From Escherichia coli (GTDB lineage: Bacteria; Pseudomonadota; Gammaproteobacteria; Enterobacterales; Enterobacteriaceae), in assembly GCF_003334765.1 (NCBI RefSeq), contig NZ_QOWT01000040.1: 31,100 nucleotides of DNA; one strand, given 5' to 3'. The position numbers were made by a program, and so were the translations under genes. A model generated the notes under the pieces. It was given only the letters and a program-made list of their open reading frames with translations, made no database searches and had not been told where the DNA came from. Positions 107 through 7,613 of this stretch are shown here, one piece after another (within the stretch, counting starts at the first letter, position 1; every line of letters begins with the position of its first letter).

Positions 107-487
107 TTGGAAACATCTGATTGGGGAATAATGAAGTTATTTGAGGATTTAGCATATAGAAATTATAAGTCAAGCGCATGGTCCGCTATGCTAAGAAATA
201 AATTAAGATTGAGAATGGACGATAAGCTTGATGAAAAGATAATTTCAATAATTAATGAGAAAGAGCTTGGTAAAAAGTTTTATAGAATTGACAGAGATCG
301 TTTGTTATCGTTAATGTTAGATTATAATATTGATATACCAATTAATCTTAATAATATAATTTACCTTTGTAATTATTTTTTCATAAAATCTACGGAGCTT
401 CAGGATATAGCCCCTGCTTTAATAATGAAAAAGCTTACAGATGCTGATGAAAAATTCAATAAAAATACTATTTTAGCATCTAAATAA
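107..487 (+). CDS. Hypothetical protein, low-GC orphan (TTG start at 107; first ATG at 131)
   Basis: 126-aa ORF from the six-frame track; AT-rich; no recognisable motif; convergent with the recombinase/ParB operon; followed by the 505-534 hairpin. Confidence 0.4.
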   Translation: METSDWGIMKLFEDLAYRNYKSSAWSAMLRNKLRLRMDDKLDEKIISIINEKELGKKFYRIDRDRLLSLMLDYNIDIPINLNNIIYLCNYFFIKSTELQDIAPALIMKKLTDADEKFNKNTILASK

Positions 488-1539: not shown

Positions 1540-2436
1540 CTATGACTGGCTGTTTTCAGTAAGAGTCTTATCATCCAAAGAATTTATTCTAGAAATTCTT
1601 TTTAACTCATTAAGATAATCAACCTCGTTTTCTAAGAACCAATGAAGAACTTTAGAGTTGCCAAGTAATTTATTAATATATGACTGGATTATAACGAATT
1701 TCAACATATCTGAACCATACTCGGTTTGAAGTTTTTTCGTTTCTTCCGAAGTTGTTGCCATTTCTTGTTCCAGACGAAGTATGGTTTTTTTTATGTCCTT
1801 TTTATAGGGAGTGTTTTTCCCTTTATTTACTATCATCGATGACGGTGTTGCATCCAAGATGCTCATTGCAAATTTTTTACTATAATTATCAAAATTAATC
1901 ATTGTACCGACTGCTTCAATTTGACGAATTGGCTTCATTTTCCTCAAAACGTCAAATGTAGCCTTAGGTATAGGTTTATCAGAAAGTTTCGCAATTACAC
2001 TTGGATCTATGCCGTTCATCACATTAGCTTTATCTTTTATGGCATCAACAGATATGCCCAAAGCAGCACTAAGTTTTTCAATTGATACTTTTGCCAGAGA
2101 CTTAATTATCATTCTATGTTCTTCAACTACATTTATATGATTCACTTGTTTGTTAGGAGTGAAAGCATCATCTATGCTCGAAAGTATACATGGAGCTTTT
2201 TCTATATCTAAGTCTTTTAAAGCCTCAACCCTTAAATGGCCATCAAGTATCTTAGTGACATCTTTATCTTTGTCATAGAATACTATTATTGGTTCAATAA
2301 TACCCAAGCTTTCGATAGAGGTAACTATTTGATGATATTTATGGCTTCGCTTTACGTTTTCTAATAATTCCTTAGATGGAATTAACTTATTAGTTTCCAG
2401 GTAAATAAAATTTTTGCCAAAACGTATCTGAATCAT
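1540..2436 (-). CDS. ParB/Srx-like protein B (298 aa), third gene of the operon
   Basis: ParB-like N-terminal layout (IIEPIIV...ILDGHLRVEAL...APCIL) followed by a helix-turn-helix-like segment (SIEKLSAALGISVDAI). ATG overlaps the stop of the upstream gene by 4 nt (ATGA). Confidence 0.6.
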   Translation of the reverse strand: MIQIRFGKNFIYLETNKLIPSKELLENVKRSHKYHQIVTSIESLGIIEPIIVFYDKDKDVTKILDGHLRVEALKDLDIEKAPCILSSIDDAFTPNKQVNHINVVEEHRMIIKSLAKVSIEKLSAALGISVDAIKDKANVMNGIDPSVIAKLSDKPIPKATFDVLRKMKPIRQIEAVGTMINFDNYSKKFAMSILDATPSSMIVNKGKNTPYKKDIKKTILRLEQEMATTSEETKKLQTEYGSDMLKFVIIQSYINKLLGNSKVLHWFLENEVDYLNELKRISRINSLDDKTLTENSQS

Positions 2437-3329
2437 TTTGATACCTCTTTGTTTACTGGGTTTAATATCTGAGATGGTAGTTCTGAAAGATTCTCTTGTT
2501 CAAGTATATTTTGAAAGCTTTTATTCATCATTATGATGTTAAAAATCTCATTTATTATTAGTAGATTGGTTTTTATAAATTTCGAGTTGTTATAAACAGA
2601 TTTATGTTCAGCGATACTATTTTCATAAAGCTCAATCAACTCCTCTGCAGTCATCCTTTTTGATGGTTTGTGATAATAAAATCCGGCTGCTTTTGCACCT
2701 TTATTCCCAACTGTTCTTTGATTTAGAATGTATTTTATCTTTATAATGTCCCGACTTTTTATTAATTTTTTATCATATGCTTCGGTAAGAATATCTTGTG
2801 CTTCCTCAGTTTCACATCTTGCAAATTGCACTGCGAGATACAGAGGCAAATTACCCCGTTCGACTGCTGAGAGAAGTTTATGCTCTCCCTTATCAAGAAG
2901 CATATTAATACTGCTCACCCAGTTCGATGAATATCCAGTAATCTCACTTATTTCGGAGTCTGAAAGTCCTCTGATTTTCATGTCTTTAATCACCTGTAAT
3001 AACTCATTAGAACGTGGTCTTCTCCTTGCAATGTTTTCAACTAAACTCATAACGTAAGCATCTTCTTCTGATACATCTCTTATAATTGCTGGAATAATAG
3101 TTTCACCTAATGCAACAAGAGCCTCTATTCTCCCTTGACCACAAATTAAAGCATATTTGAAATCGTCTTCATCAATAGCTCTTACGCTTATAGGCTTGCT
3201 TAATCCTCTTTTTTTTATGCTTTCCTTTATTTCTTCATGCACTACCTTATTTCTTGTTCGTGGGTTAAGAAATTTTATTTTTGCAATCTCAATTTGAATT
3301 ATTGGGAATTCATTTTTTTCAGGCAGCAT
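2433..3329 (-). CDS. ParB/Srx-like protein A (298 aa), second gene of the operon
   Basis: Close positional match to ParB/Spo0J N-terminal domain plus HTH: PISVRAI...ICGQGRIEAL...IPAIIRDVSEEDAYVMSLVENIARR...LSDSEISEITGYSSNWVSSINMLL. GAGGG Shine-Dalgarno 7 nt upstream; start overlaps the recombinase stop by 11 nt. Confidence 0.65.
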   Translation of the reverse strand: MLPEKNEFPIIQIEIAKIKFLNPRTRNKVVHEEIKESIKKRGLSKPISVRAIDEDDFKYALICGQGRIEALVALGETIIPAIIRDVSEEDAYVMSLVENIARRRPRSNELLQVIKDMKIRGLSDSEISEITGYSSNWVSSINMLLDKGEHKLLSAVERGNLPLYLAVQFARCETEEAQDILTEAYDKKLIKSRDIIKIKYILNQRTVGNKGAKAAGFYYHKPSKRMTAEELIELYENSIAEHKSVYNNSKFIKTNLLIINEIFNIIMMNKSFQNILEQENLSELPSQILNPVNKEVSK

Positions 3330-4875
3330 ATAGTTCCCTCACTTTCATGCGAGTAATAATTTGTAGAAATTTATCAAGATTATCAAATCTATAGAGATCT
3401 AACCGAATGTTGTTTGTTTCCATCATACACATTTTACTATATTCGTTTTCAATCTTTGGTATGATATAAAAATCAAGAGGTGAAATATTTTGTGAATTCA
3501 TTCGTATAACAATTGTTATGTCTGCTTTCTGTGAGTTATCAAACCGGACTTTCCATCTAAGTTTACCTGATTTCATATGTATGCATTTAGTAACAAGGAC
3601 GGAAATTAAAAACTCATCATTGATGTAAAGCATTGGGTAATATTTATACTCGTCTATATGACAGTTACTTTTTAATATTTCGCCCTTAAAATCCTCAATT
3701 ATCTCTGAGTAAAATGATCTTAGTGCTTCATTTATTTGGAGATAGCTGTAATCATGTTCTGGCTTATAACCAATCAAAGTATATGCTCTTAAAAGACCAC
3801 CAAATCGGGTTCTATAAACAGAAGATGAAGGGCCTGTATCATCTTCATCAATGATAAAGCCTGATAGTTTTCCATTAGATTCTAATTTTTCTTTTAGCTT
3901 TTCTAATAGATCTTCATTAGTCAAATGAATGGATCGGAGCTGAATTATTTCTTGAGCTTTATTATATTTTTTCTTTGAAATAATTGGTTTATATGCCTTG
4001 TCACATCTAATCCATTCATGTTTGGGGTTTTTTACAAGCTTACTTTTTAGTTTAGATGAGGTTTTGTTATATATGTTGTTTCCAATATATTTTTCATTTG
4101 TCAAAATTTGATGTATTTTTGCACGAGTCCATGATGTTCCATTTTCTGCAGGTATGCTCTGTTCATTTAATCTCTCAGCAATAATGAATTCTGGGACGTT
4201 ACTATCTATAAAGAGATCATAGATTCTATTTACAATTTTTATTTCATTTTTTGGTCCCGGAATTAATATTACCCTATCTGTTTGAATACTCTTTCTTTTG
4301 CGGAAATTCAATATTTCTTTAGCTATGCCATTTTCGTCTACTAAAAGACGTCTCAGCCCATAACCAGCCATACCGCCTTGATGATAACCAAGCTTTATTA
4401 AATTTACTTGCCCTATAAATACCTTTTCAGATAGATTCCTGCTGTGATATGCAGCACTTGATCTTTTTATATTCAGTATAACAGAGGACTCTAAAGGGAA
4501 ATCTTTAGTGGGTATAGGTTCGGAACAATATATAAGATCTACACCATTTCTTTCAAATAGAAAGGAATAATATGCAGCTTCATCACTATTTTGAAAACGA
4601 CCAAAACGGCTCACATCATAAAATAATACAGCCTGTATATCTATTTTCTTTTGTTCTACATCGCTAAGTAACTGCTGCAAAGAATGCCTGCCTACGATAC
4701 TGACTCCGCTCTTACCTGCATCATCGTAGGTATAAGCGATTTCCATATTGTTCTTTTCAGCATAATCTTTGATATATTCAGACTGATTATGTAAAGAATA
4801 TTGCTGATGGTCGGTAGACATCCTCAAGTACTGTGCGACCCTAACTCTATGATTTTTTTCATTTCCGCTAGCCAT
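3319..4875 (-). CDS. Large serine recombinase-like protein (about 518 aa; track ORF starts at TTG 4881, first ATG at 4875)
   Basis: Resolvase-type catalytic domain motifs in the right order: YLRMSTDHQ (presumed nucleophile Ser), DDAGKSG, RHSLQQLL, VSRFGR. Then a recombinase-domain signature: GGMAGYGL ... WTRAKIHQILTNEKYIGN. GAGG Shine-Dalgarno upstream of the ATG. Confidence 0.7.
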   Translation of the reverse strand: MASGNEKNHRVRVAQYLRMSTDHQQYSLHNQSEYIKDYAEKNNMEIAYTYDDAGKSGVSIVGRHSLQQLLSDVEQKKIDIQAVLFYDVSRFGRFQNSDEAAYYSFLFERNGVDLIYCSEPIPTKDFPLESSVILNIKRSSAAYHSRNLSEKVFIGQVNLIKLGYHQGGMAGYGLRRLLVDENGIAKEILNFRKRKSIQTDRVILIPGPKNEIKIVNRIYDLFIDSNVPEFIIAERLNEQSIPAENGTSWTRAKIHQILTNEKYIGNNIYNKTSSKLKSKLVKNPKHEWIRCDKAYKPIISKKKYNKAQEIIQLRSIHLTNEDLLEKLKEKLESNGKLSGFIIDEDDTGPSSSVYRTRFGGLLRAYTLIGYKPEHDYSYLQINEALRSFYSEIIEDFKGEILKSNCHIDEYKYYPMLYINDEFLISVLVTKCIHMKSGKLRWKVRFDNSQKADITIVIRMNSQNISPLDFYIIPKIENEYSKMCMMETNNIRLDLYRFDNLDKFLQIITRMKVRELYAA

Positions 4876-5157
4876 GCACAAAACCTCATGGATGATTCAA
4901 TACAATGTAGAGGATAAAATTGATCAAATTTTAACCGAATTCAACTGTTTTATCATTGATTAGAGCGAATTTGGTAGTTCTTCGAGGTGTATGATAATCG
5001 AGAAGAGATGTGAATTATTTAGCTGATATGACCGACAGCTTTCGTTATGTGGCCTCAAGGTACCCATTTGTAAATGGCTATGCTTAGTCCACATAGGTTA
5101 ATGGTGTGATCATTAATTCTTCAAATAAATCAAGATAGTTAACCCATCATGGAAGAG

Positions 5158-6387
5158 TTATGCGGCAATAACTTTGTATTTTTGAGACGAAACATAGTCA
5201 CTCCACCATTGCATGAGAACCACACGTTCTGTGAGATACTCTGCACGATTGTAGGCTGCAATTATTTCATCTTTTTTCGAGTGGGCAAGGGCGGCTTCTA
5301 AGACATCAGTTCTAAACTTGCCACACTCCTCAGCCGCCGTTCTAGCGATTGATCGCATACCATGAGCTACAAGCTCACCTCCGAAGCCCATACGGATTAT
5401 AGCCGCATTAGCTGTTTGTTCATGCATGTGATTGAGTGGAGCTTTGATACTGGGAAAAACCCACTCTCTATGCCCGCTGATGGCTTTCATTGAATCCAAG
5501 ACTCGCAAAGATTCTTTGCTCAGTGGAACTTTGTGAGGCTTCTTCATTTTCATAAACTCCGCCGGGATGTTCCACATGCTGGTTTCTATATCAATATCTG
5601 ACCATCTTGTGCGAACAGCTTCACCAGGGCGAACCCATGTGAGAAGTTGCCACTCAATCAGTAGCCTTGTTTCTAAACGGATAGAAGCATTGTTTAGAGC
5701 AACCAGGAAGCGGGGGAGTTCGGAAGGGGGTAATGCTGGCATATTCTGTTTTTTTGGCTTGCTGAACCGTTGCCCCAGGTTGTCAGCCGGATTGAATTCT
5801 ATGAGTTCTTCTGTTGCTGCATAGCGGAAAATTTCATTCAGGCGGGATATGACGCGGCGAAGTGTTTCAAGGACACCTCGTTTTTCTATGGGGTCTAAAT
5901 GCTGTTTAAGCATTTTAGGGCGAATCTCCTTAATGGGGGTATCACCCAACGTTGGAAAGATATTTCTCTCTAGGCTTCGCCAGATGTCGTTAGCATGATC
6001 CTGGGAGATGCCTGACGTTTTGACTTTCTCATCAAGCCACTTCTTGGCTACTGCTTGAAATGTATGTTCCGTTGCATCCTTAAGGGCATTGGCTTTGTGG
6101 GTGTTATGAATTTGTGGGTCTATACCATTTGCAAGCAACGACAAGTACTCATCACGTAAAGCTCGTGCCTTCGCAAGTGTAAGGTGAGGATAGGTTCCTA
6201 AGCTCACCTTAGTTCGCTTTTTGGTCACAGGCACTGCATATCTGAAATACCAATTTTTCTTTCCTCCCTTCGCTAAGGGGGCGATTCGCAGGAGCAAACC
6301 ATCGCCGTCAAAAAGGTTAACCTCTTTCTCGGCAGGTTTGGTGCTTTTGATTTCAGTGTCAGTGAGCTTCTTAGCGATTTTTGCCAT
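5158..6387 (-). CDS. P4-family tyrosine integrase (409 aa from MAKIAKKLTDTEIK; the track ORF extends upstream to 6531)
   Basis: N-terminus typical of P4/CP4-57-type integrases; C-terminal tyrosine recombinase motifs (HGMRSIARTAAE ... AHSKKDEIIAAYNRAEY); sits directly beside the ssrA 3' end. Confidence 0.85.
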   Translation of the reverse strand: MAKIAKKLTDTEIKSTKPAEKEVNLFDGDGLLLRIAPLAKGGKKNWYFRYAVPVTKKRTKVSLGTYPHLTLAKARALRDEYLSLLANGIDPQIHNTHKANALKDATEHTFQAVAKKWLDEKVKTSGISQDHANDIWRSLERNIFPTLGDTPIKEIRPKMLKQHLDPIEKRGVLETLRRVISRLNEIFRYAATEELIEFNPADNLGQRFSKPKKQNMPALPPSELPRFLVALNNASIRLETRLLIEWQLLTWVRPGEAVRTRWSDIDIETSMWNIPAEFMKMKKPHKVPLSKESLRVLDSMKAISGHREWVFPSIKAPLNHMHEQTANAAIIRMGFGGELVAHGMRSIARTAAEECGKFRTDVLEAALAHSKKDEIIAAYNRAEYLTERVVLMQWWSDYVSSQKYKVIAA

Positions 6388-6553
6388 GTTTGGGACCCTC
6401 ATGTTTTGGACCCTTTGTGTTGGGTCCCAAAAAGGGTGCCATAACGAGTAGATTCTAGCAATTCTCGGTAGACTACTATAGACGTAAAAAAGCCCGCAAG
6501 GCTGGTTCCATGCGGGCTTGATAGACTTCACTGAACTTCAATATATCAAAAAT

Positions 6554-6916
6554 TGGTGGAGCTGGCGGGAGTTGAACCCGCGTCCGAAATTCCTACATCC
6601 TCGGTACTACATGCTTAGTCAGTCTTTACATTCGCTTGCCAGCTGCGGACGGACACGCCACTAACAAACTAGCCTGATTAAGTTTTAACGCTTCAACCCC
6701 AGGCAGGGCTTCCACGCGATCTCTTTTGGGTTTGACCTCTCTTGATCCCCGTCCTAAGAGCGGAGGCTAGGGAGAGAGGGCTCTAAGCAGGTTATTAAGC
6801 TGCTAAAGCGTAGTTTTCGTCGTTTGCGACTATTTTTTGCGGCTTTTTACGAGGCCAACCGCCCCTCGGCATGCACCTTGGGTTTCGCAAATCCCGTCGA
6901 ATCCAGAATCAGCCCC
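6554..6916 (-). ncRNA. ssrA: tmRNA (SsrA), 363 nt
   Basis: Reverse complement reads GGGGCTGATTCTGGATTCGACGGGATTTGCGAAACCC ... GGGTTCAACTCCCGCCAGCTCCACCA, i.e. the tRNA-like 5' and 3' ends of tmRNA including the CCA end. Confidence 0.92.
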
Positions 6917-7130: not shown

Positions 7131-7613
7131 TTAACGGTGGGCGTTTTTCATGATACGTGCTTTATCCACCTGCCATTCGCGCTCTTTGATATCTGAACGT
7201 TTATCGTGCTGTTTCTTACCTTTGGCGACGCCGATTTTCACTTTGCACCAGGCATTTTTCCAGTACAGGGAGAGCGCCACTACGGTATAGCCTTCTCGAT
7301 TGACGCGACCGTACAATGAGTCCAGTTCGCGCTGGTTGAGAAGTAACTTGCGGGTACGGGTAGGATCGCACACCACATGCGTGGAGGCCACGGCCATTGG
7401 CGTGATGTTAGCGCCAAACAGAAATGCCTCTCCGTCACGCAGAAGGACGTAGCTGTCGCTGATATTGGCTTTTCCTGCGCGCAGGGATTTAACTTCCCAG
7501 CCTTGCAGGGCAAGTCCCGCTTCGAACTCTTCTTCGATAAAGTATTCGTGACGGGCGCGCTTGTTAAGCGCGATGGTCGCTGAACCAGGTTTATGTGCTT
7601 TTTTCTTCGTCAT
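7131..7613 (-). CDS. smpB: SsrA-binding protein SmpB (160 aa)
   Basis: Recognised translation ([28 protein letters not shown]...); located beside ssrA. Confidence 0.92.

Follow-up and report, generated by a model that had tools for sequence, protein, structure and literature searches.

The chromosome of Escherichia coli around ssrA, represented here by a stretch of 31,100 nucleotides (contig NZ_QOWT01000040.1; the window), encodes two tandem ParB-like proteins, ParB-A and ParB-B. We show that these genes are the second and third members of a widespread, uncharacterized three-gene unit headed by a serine recombinase, Rec, and that this unit (the trio) is carried on mobile genomic islands rich in defense genes. 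We tentatively favor a scenario in which a ParB-fold protein was repurposed as an unequal pair that serves the recombinase. The original prediction for this DNA, made from the sequence alone, described the ParB pair; it missed both the recombinase gene that precedes the pair in the operon and the location on a mobile island.

A conserved three-gene unit across the Proteobacteria

We surveyed gene neighborhoods by searching 87 loci from alpha-, beta-, and gammaproteobacteria with the three E. coli proteins (tblastn). Every locus with enough sequence, among ~85, carries Rec, ParB-A, and ParB-B in this order, on the same strand, with the genes abutting or overlapping, and the two ParB paralogues are present in all trio loci. 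Independent gene calls recover the same arrangement in Rhodovulum, Paraburkholderia, Dickeya, and several metagenomic contigs, as well as on a Pseudomonas aeruginosa megaplasmid, an Agrobacterium At plasmid, and a Piscinibacter Tn7-like element. The reading frames in the window overlap by 11 nucleotides between Rec and the start of ParB-A and by 4 nucleotides between the stop codon of ParB-A and ParB-B. Of the 5,426 complete E. coli genomes, 669 (12%) have the trio, in single copy, on the chromosome at ssrA and never on a plasmid; homologues also occur on rhizobial and other megaplasmids. Apparent transposon-like, multicopy behavior on Sinorhizobium pSymA was set aside as uninformative, the copies there being degenerate or lying in repeat-rich DNA.

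The original prediction that the pair lacks a ParA holds well beyond the two genes: we found no ParA in the window, none in the 15 kb that adjoin its left edge, as read from an identical genome, and none as a recurrent neighbor in the 87 loci. The one distant ParA/MipZ-like gene observed (locus L118) is an unrelated chromosomal gene. No repA or repC was found near the trio, and no dnd or DUF1524 partner is conserved, a single DUF1524 fragment being limited to locus L005. A small divergent helix-turn-helix (HTH) gene lies upstream of Rec in ~39 of the 87 loci (e.g., L036:6859-7314, L074:6690-7397, and L088:4258-4773) and is absent from the E. coli window; its products share a motif of the type "...TVKNWF.G...P.G..L..L" and give weak HTH matches. 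The NCBI names for the trio proteins are "ParB/RepB/Spo0J family partition protein" (ParB-A and ParB-B) and "recombinase family protein" (Rec), and PHROGs lists A-like and B-like families with function unknown.

Two unequal ParB-fold proteins with conserved variant motifs

Both predicted 298-amino-acid reading frames proved real and intact. Pfam recognizes ParB_N and RepB (PF07506) in each, ParB-A being the stronger in ParB_N (5e-13, and 4e-7 for RepB) and ParB-B the stronger in RepB (7e-24, and 8e-5 for ParB_N). A phmmer search of the PDB aligned ParB-A with Thermus Spo0J, Myxococcus ParB, Noc, and KorB, and ParB-B with Noc. To each other the two proteins align at 30% identity over 63 amino acids (E = 0.003), and by this comparison they are distant paralogues only. 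ParB-A passes the cut-off of the generic NCBIfam model parB_part (TIGR00180; 61.7 bits versus 58.45), whereas ParB-B falls below it (32.7 bits). Scores stay far below the equivalog cut-offs for RepB, Noc, and PRTRC ParB; for the RepB equivalog (TIGR03454), ParB-A scores 37 bits versus a cut-off of 201.5 and ParB-B has no match.

The claim that both proteins depart from the canonical arginine motif of ParB was borne out. In the PDB sequence alignments, "licGQGRieal" of ParB-A stands opposite "lvaGERRyraa" of Spo0J, and "ilDGHLRveal" of ParB-B stands opposite "liaGERRwrav" of Noc. ParB-A has a glutamine at the GERR glutamate and a threonine or valine at the box I glutamine, keeps the last arginine of GxxR, and retains the ENxxR box III (VENIARR); ParB-B is without boxes I and III and keeps only the superfamily-wide core DGHxR (as DGHLR). 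These variants are family-wide. The ParB-A family consensus includes CGQGR-x-EA and SLVENIARR, and in alignments of the ParB-B family from alpha-, beta-, and gammaproteobacteria D65, G66, and R69 are invariant and H67 and L68 invariant or nearly so. Across 39 ParB-B homologues from the three classes, 12 residues are invariant and another 25 nearly so, DGHLRxEAL being among the conserved positions; relatives of ParB-B make up at least 1,373 database clusters and were found in 452 of ~100,000 species genomes. The ratio of nonsynonymous to synonymous substitution rates (dN/dS) against Enterobacter vonholyi is 0.05 for ParB-A and 0.07 for ParB-B. Because the variant motifs are family-wide and dN/dS is this low, neither gene is decaying, and the motifs are conserved signatures.

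ParB-B is indeed the more divergent of the two, as had been predicted, yet it too has a ParB-type HTH region. Its AlphaFold model (predicted local distance difference test score, 82) shows a ParB N-domain and a helical HTH region and ends in a C-terminal helix of 49 residues. The best Foldseek matches of this model are ParB, Noc, and KorB structures bound to CTPgammaS or CDP, across ~200 residues that span the N-domain and the HTH; PadC, serine kinase, and sulfiredoxin are weaker by orders of magnitude, and the weak NCBIfam and Foldseek matches to the serine kinase SerK and to sulfiredoxin reflect a shared fold. Neither Pfam nor NCBIfam found a DUF262, DndB, or nuclease domain in ParB-A or ParB-B. 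This ranking, together with the motif and domain data, places both proteins with the DNA-binding clamps and not with DndB/DUF262. Hydrolysis of cytidine triphosphate (CTP) by ParB requires the glutamine of box I and the glutamate of GERR, and the PDB matches of ParB-A and ParB-B include the Q52A and E93A mutant entries; ParB-A might thus bind nucleotide but hydrolyze it poorly.

A 178-amino-acid N-terminal fragment of ParB-B (cluster P0029), 100% identical over its length, accounts for 386 member sequences and ~100 contigs, and the 3' part of the gene is absent from some complete genomes (H109). From these entries and genomes we conclude that the trio is inactivated in a minority of strains.

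A catalytically intact recombinase without a zinc ribbon

By sequence, Rec is a large serine recombinase, with a resolvase catalytic domain that holds a nucleophilic serine (Pfam Resolvase, 1.4e-21) and a recombinase domain (Pfam Recombinase, 1.1e-21). The catalytic motif Y-x-R-M-S-T (Ser20) and the residues D87, R90, and R93 are invariant in 38 homologues, and proteins from different proteobacterial classes are ~44% identical over the whole length. With its catalytic residues intact, Rec is predicted to be active. The best Foldseek matches are the integrases of SPbeta (SprA), Bxb1, and PhiC31, in the catalytic and recombinase domains only, the alignments ending after ~320 to 365 residues. We found no zinc ribbon in Rec, either as a Pfam match or as CxxC pairs in the sequence; its C terminus has a motif resembling a homing-endonuclease-associated repeat (a weak match, Pfam E = 0.5) and a conserved helical and beta-rich domain.

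The trio travels with integrases on mobile islands

A P4-type tyrosine integrase lies directly upstream of the trio in the window, in the same orientation. Alleles of this integrase at least 90% identical number 664, versus 669 E. coli genomes with the trio, and every sampled match at that identity also covered Rec; related integrases at ~79% identity (573) lie in other islands without the trio. The DNA beyond ParB-B differs in extent between E. coli genomes, and the flanking genes are highly variable. Strain BL21 has an intact trio beside ssrA that is 98 to 99% identical (locus L114, NZ_CP053601.1 2594496-2597831); the order there is ssrA, integrase, trio, 344 bp, and an IS1 insertion sequence, followed by glaH, so that nothing but the integrase and the trio remains of the island. 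Strain REL606 also carries the trio. A Dickeya island likewise contains only tRNA-Pro, an integrase, and the trio.

The association extends across sites and elements. The trio adjoins an integrase at five different tRNA or transfer-messenger RNA (tmRNA) sites, in both orientations, and P4-type integrases abut it at tRNA-Arg, tRNA-Ala, and tRNA-Leu genes and at a site beside prfB-lysS. A second E. coli trio lineage, ~64% identical (L242, strain SMN197SH3), lies in a mobilizable element that also encodes a MobQ relaxase, TraD, a reverse transcriptase, and a TIR-domain fragment. No tyrosine integrase is annotated there, nor any other recombinase from the tRNA-Ile gene up to the trio; the MobQ/TraD linkage was seen at this one locus and is not a general trait. 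Citrobacter and Erwinia share a 3,557-bp cassette, 96.6% identical, with sharp ends within unrelated flanks, and the 370 flanking open reading frames (ORFs) of the trio fall into 327 clusters. The trio has spread horizontally, with allele swapping inside conserved islands. An 11.7-kb block shared at 95% identity by Paracoccus and Palleronia includes an Azaco system downstream of the trio.

Defense genes in the neighborhood

Half of the sampled immediate downstream neighbors (15/30) match PADLOC defense models. Among them are DarG, type I and type IIG restriction-modification (R-M) systems, Azaco ZacABC, PDC-S24, PDC-S36, and GajB-like, MzaC-like, retron-type PRTase, and PrimPol-type proteins. 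None of 10 upstream neighbors gave a convincing PADLOC match, one of them being polA. This downstream bias is not absolute: exceptions are locus L115, where a DUF499/DUF1156/PLD-SNF2 system lies upstream of the trio, and the loci with an integrase downstream. A type I R-M system follows the trio at locus L120, and on the Agrobacterium plasmid the surroundings of the trio include AbiEii, Fic, and a restriction enzyme. In several Rhodobacteraceae, Azaco (ZacABC) lies directly downstream of the trio and the RNA described below (L039:11348-17510, ~5 related loci, and L080). For the trio itself, PADLOC-DB v2 returned no match to Rec or ParB-A, and ParB-B matched only the ParB-like N terminus of a methyltransferase model (3.8e-6).

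A conserved palindrome upstream of the operon

The 16-bp palindrome AAAATTGATCAAATTT just upstream of Rec has no other match in the window (0.07 expected). Enterobacterial loci have a palindrome of the form AAAAWTGATCAWTTTT 40 to 90 nucleotides upstream of the Rec start, and the strict form AA[AT]TGATCA[AT]TT has 8 matches in 1.43 Mb of loci, all of them 50 to 85 nucleotides upstream of Rec, in enterobacterial loci with protein identities of only ~45 to 50%. The palindrome is kept in ~12 enterobacterial loci with strongly diverged proteins, and it is the best candidate for an operator or a parS-like loading site of the operon. It stands singly; no parS-type array was found. The original prediction had instead proposed palindromes at 867-886 (a perfect 20-bp palindrome) and 1006-1048 as binding sites. 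Both lie in the spacer downstream of ParB-B, at positions that are absent from BL21 and E. vonholyi, and they are not conserved with the genes.

A structured RNA follows the trio in half of the family

Directly 3' of the ParB-B stop codon, on the sense strand, 43 of the 87 loci have a structured RNA of ~128 nucleotides, a segment more conserved than coding DNA. The fold has six helices and near-invariant loops, with 97.6% of cells paired and compensatory changes at 13 pairs; pairing falls to 27 to 44% once the partners are slid. Many of the G-U pairs exist on the sense strand only, and the fold result was replicated on independent sequences. Scans of IMG/VR and of metagenomes placed 17 and 102 copies, respectively, directly after a ParB-B gene, with 1 and 10 orphans and 7 in each set without upstream sequence to judge. 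One orphan (L028:17652-17778) lies 6.6 kb downstream of the copy that belongs to the trio, after a 560-amino-acid gene paired with a 1,652-amino-acid NERD-kinase-helicase gene; only the RNA itself is duplicated. Of two others (L093:6717-6842 and L224), one lies in a phage-tail or gene transfer agent-like region and one after the small HTH gene.

No Rfam family matches this RNA at gathering or permissive thresholds. Its covariance model finds no match in the window or in any beta- or gammaproteobacterial locus, so the RNA is not part of the feature in this window; no alternative conserved element was found downstream in 40 loci without it. The RNA shows that the trio family is more than a DNA-binding pair. 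We found no description of the trio or of the RNA in searchable full-text literature, RefSeq accessions included; most subscription journals lie outside that coverage, and a prior description there cannot be excluded.

Layout of the window

Coordinates are collected in Table 1. After the integrase, the DNA becomes a block of ~32% G+C that holds three mutually overlapping minus-strand ORFs, the trio. The ~1 kb between ParB-B and the RelA/SpoT-domain gene (488-1539) has no credible ORF and includes a patch of ~50% G+C at 1290-1500 inside the otherwise 32% G+C island. The left extent of this spacer differs among E. coli genomes, and BL21 retains only 1196-1539 before its IS1. In this genome the RelA/SpoT-domain gene is cut between positions 72 and 73 (72/73), because matches to other genomes begin only at base 73; positions 1-72 have no match to the island in other genomes. 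At this cut, related genomes have IS3-family elements and a full 301-amino-acid RelA/SpoT gene preceded by a 332-amino-acid hypothetical gene. We dropped this neighbor as a known defense gene, its PADLOC match being only marginal and none convincing. A subthreshold Rfam match to the small RNA IsrM (6486-6563; 42 bits versus a gathering score of 376) lies at the junction of the tmRNA 3' end with the island and is probably the attachment-site region, not a small RNA. On the window spacer, tmRNA was the only Rfam match at gathering and permissive thresholds, and scans for sigma-70 promoters and terminators did not exceed shuffled expectation.

Table 1. Features of the window and RNA copies at other loci (aa, amino acids; nt, nucleotides)
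Feature	Position	Strand	Remarks
RelA/SpoT-domain gene, C-terminal part	107-487	+	Island cargo, convergent with trio
ParB-B, 298 aa	1540-2436	-	Divergent ParB N-domain, HTH, long C-terminal helical region
ParB-A, 298 aa	2433-3329	-	ParB N-domain, HTH, RepB-type C-terminal region
Rec, large-serine-recombinase type	3319-4881	-	520 aa from TTG; 518 aa as annotated from ATG at 4875
16-bp palindrome AAAATTGATCAAATTT	4916-4931	.	35-50 nt upstream of Rec start; contains Dam GATC site
P4-type tyrosine integrase of ssrA island	5158-6387	-	Annotated as 409-aa integrase in identical genome
ssrA (tmRNA)	6554-6916	-	Rfam tmRNA 295.8 bits and annotation; attachment locus of island
smpB	7131-7613		
Structured RNA copies (other loci)	L039:10889-11026; L002:8938-9051; L028:10891-11017; L117:10930-11058; ~40 other loci		

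Discussion

The reading that we favor, to which we would give a little less than an even chance, is that ParB-A and ParB-B form a heteromeric, site-specific DNA-binding accessory to Rec and that the trio is a backbone module for the integration, excision, resolution, or cargo rearrangement of its island, autoregulated at the upstream palindrome. We favor it because Rec is catalytically intact and lacks the usual site-selection domain, because the trio lies beside integrases or mobilization genes in many independent elements, and because within E. coli it is tied to the integrase while the cargo varies. Also in its favor are the minimal islands of BL21 and Dickeya, the sharp-ended Citrobacter/Erwinia cassette, the conserved palindrome, and the divergent HTH gene upstream of Rec in ~39 of the 87 loci. 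Each ParB protein would contribute a nucleotide-pocket domain at its N terminus, an HTH, and a helical region for dimerization, and the two would probably form one heteromer. The pair may bind the element's own DNA, in enterobacteria likely at the TGATCA palindrome before the operon, which would also provide autoregulation, and may then load or position Rec. In large serine recombinases, site choice and directionality normally come from a zinc-ribbon and coiled-coil region, which Rec lacks. The trio would thereby integrate, excise, or resolve the island or rearrange its cargo; it would not segregate DNA. The trio would thus be a self-contained recombination module in the backbone of small mobile islands with variable cargo, largely defense and toxin genes, and its hosts would include tyrosine-integrase islands at tRNA and tmRNA genes, mobilizable elements, Tn7-like transposons, and megaplasmids. 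The original prediction of a heteromeric DNA-binding or nuclease complex survives in its first part, with which the strict co-occurrence and overlapping frames fit; the nuclease part is not supported, given the missing domain and the ParB-clamp fold matches.

Several observations weigh against a backbone recombination module. Among 70 loci, we found no consistent direct or inverted repeats of at least 10 nucleotides between the 450 nucleotides upstream and downstream of the trio, and no long imperfect att-like palindromes upstream of Rec rose above shuffled sequence, a 50-bp candidate at 5046-5095 included. Dyad symmetry at the joined ends of the Citrobacter/Erwinia cassette is at chance level, and cassette boundaries vary by lineage, the Erwinia cassette ending exactly at the ParB-B stop codon. 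A second integrase should be unnecessary where the island already has a tyrosine integrase; the trio of the Tn7-like element lies at the usual start of cargo; and linkage to one integrase allele in one species could simply reflect a single acquisition.

The main rival, unlikely in our judgment though ahead of the others, is that the trio itself is an antiphage or antiplasmid defense system, in which the ParB pair would recognize or load onto the invader and Rec would break or scramble its DNA. The defense-model matches of its downstream neighbors (15/30), the AbiEii, Fic, and restriction genes on the Agrobacterium plasmid, the systems at L115 and L120, the cargo position in the Tn7-like transposon, a patchy distribution (12% of E. 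coli), and a horizontal spread in which alleles are exchanged within conserved islands all fit such a role. A site-specific recombinase, however, requires two defined sites, and no trio protein matches a known or candidate PADLOC family. The trio is tied to the integrase and does not alternate with other systems there, which fits backbone better than cargo. An intact trio is also present in E. coli B/BL21, the classical permissive host of T phages, and we know of no defense system that employs a resolvase-type recombinase.

More doubtful is the view that the trio, joined in half of the family by the RNA, is a DNA-rearranging machine of a new kind, in which a heterodimeric, nucleotide-gated ParB clamp delivers a zinc-ribbon-less recombinase. 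The clamp would load at a specific site and slide along DNA, with the RNA either built in as a subunit or serving as the target of recombination. Defense cargo would be captured, excised, or switched, and the trio would be a recombinase-based organizer of defense islands or an immunity mechanism.

We consider it very improbable that the pair is a nuclease-type or nucleotide-transfer ParB/Srx complex akin to DndB, DUF262/GmrSD, or Osa, with the ParB folds acting as enzymes. The invariant DGHLR of ParB-B, a superfamily DGHxR-like core and all that this protein keeps of the motifs, and the shared fold revealed by the weak SerK and sulfiredoxin matches would suit an enzyme. The top fold matches, by contrast, are DNA-binding ParB clamps over ~200 residues including the HTH, with SerK and sulfiredoxin orders of magnitude behind; Pfam finds no DUF262, DndB, or nuclease domain; and ParB-A retains the ENxxR box typical of clamp ParBs. 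Marginally less probable again is a relic plasmid stability cassette, a multimer-resolution recombinase with a centromere-binding ParB whose ParA was lost after a move to the chromosome. The partition-protein names, the homologues on rhizobial and other megaplasmids, and a ParM/StbA pair in one island speak for such an origin. There is, however, no ParA beside the trio in ~90 loci, plasmid copies included; the RepB equivalog cut-offs are unmet (ParB-A, 37 versus 201.5 bits; ParB-B, none); two ParB paralogues are present in all loci; and 669 of 669 E. coli copies are chromosomal. That the pair is not a segregation system, as originally predicted, agrees with the lack of ParA, the missed equivalog cut-offs, and the generic parB_part cut-off reached by ParB-A alone. 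Decay of ParB-B into a functionless duplicate of ParB-A, which the original prediction had named as one outcome that would overturn it, has a weak ParB_N score (8e-5) and the loss of boxes I and III in its favor but is effectively refuted by strong purifying selection (dN/dS 0.07), the 12 invariant and 25 near-invariant residues in 39 homologues, a RepB-domain score above that of ParB-A, and a confident model.

Comparison with known systems

ParB proteins are CTP-gated DNA clamps, and Noc, KorB, and VirB depart from segregation as homodimers, alone or with a small partner. The trio resembles KorB of RK2, Noc, and VirB of Shigella in having a ParB N-domain followed by an HTH, KorB and Noc being among the best sequence and fold matches of ParB-A and ParB-B. 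Those proteins act without ParA and bind palindromic sites, and the trio has its conserved 16-bp palindrome. Unlike them, the trio has two unequal paralogues in place of a homodimer, and these never occur apart from a serine recombinase. The GERR box reads GQGR in ParB-A and GHLR in ParB-B, which also lacks the ENLQR box; nucleotide binding by the pair is putative. The C-terminal region belongs to the Pfam RepB type. With the ParB of ParABS systems and the RepB of repABC, the trio shares ParB_N and RepB domains, and ParB-A passes TIGR00180, but it has no ParA or RepA, RepC, or centromere array, equivalog cut-offs are unmet, and all E. coli copies are chromosomal island genes.

Like the large serine recombinases (SprA/SprB of SPbeta, Int/gp3 of PhiC31, Int/gp47 of Bxb1, and CcrAB of the staphylococcal cassette chromosome), Rec has catalytic and recombinase domains and is encoded with small partner proteins on mobile elements. 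It differs in having no zinc ribbon or coiled coil, no att sites were identified for it, and its partners are of the ParB fold; we know of no ParB-fold protein that acts as a directionality factor. The ParB-like proteins of integrative and conjugative elements (TIGR03764) and of PRTRC systems (TIGR03734) give weak matches to the N-domain of ParB-A and share a mobile-element context and an unknown role. ParB-A falls far below their cut-offs, however (50 versus 279 bits and 21 versus 144 bits, respectively), and the trio, of a different architecture, has no ThiF-like or other PRTRC gene.

Significance

What would be new here is a protein of the ParB-CTPase fold repurposed as an unequal pair serving a recombinase. 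If this scenario is true, the fold would have gained a new use in an unequal ParB pair with altered nucleotide-pocket motifs that is firmly tied to a site-specific recombinase, and the pair would be an "asymmetric clamp" made by nature. Because the module is present in 12% of complete E. coli genomes, BL21 included, the hypothesis is directly testable by genetics and chromatin immunoprecipitation in a standard strain. The RNA that follows the trio in part of the family may represent a new class of RNA linked to a protein machine. As the trio stands beside integrases and defense genes, it bears on how defense islands are built and moved.

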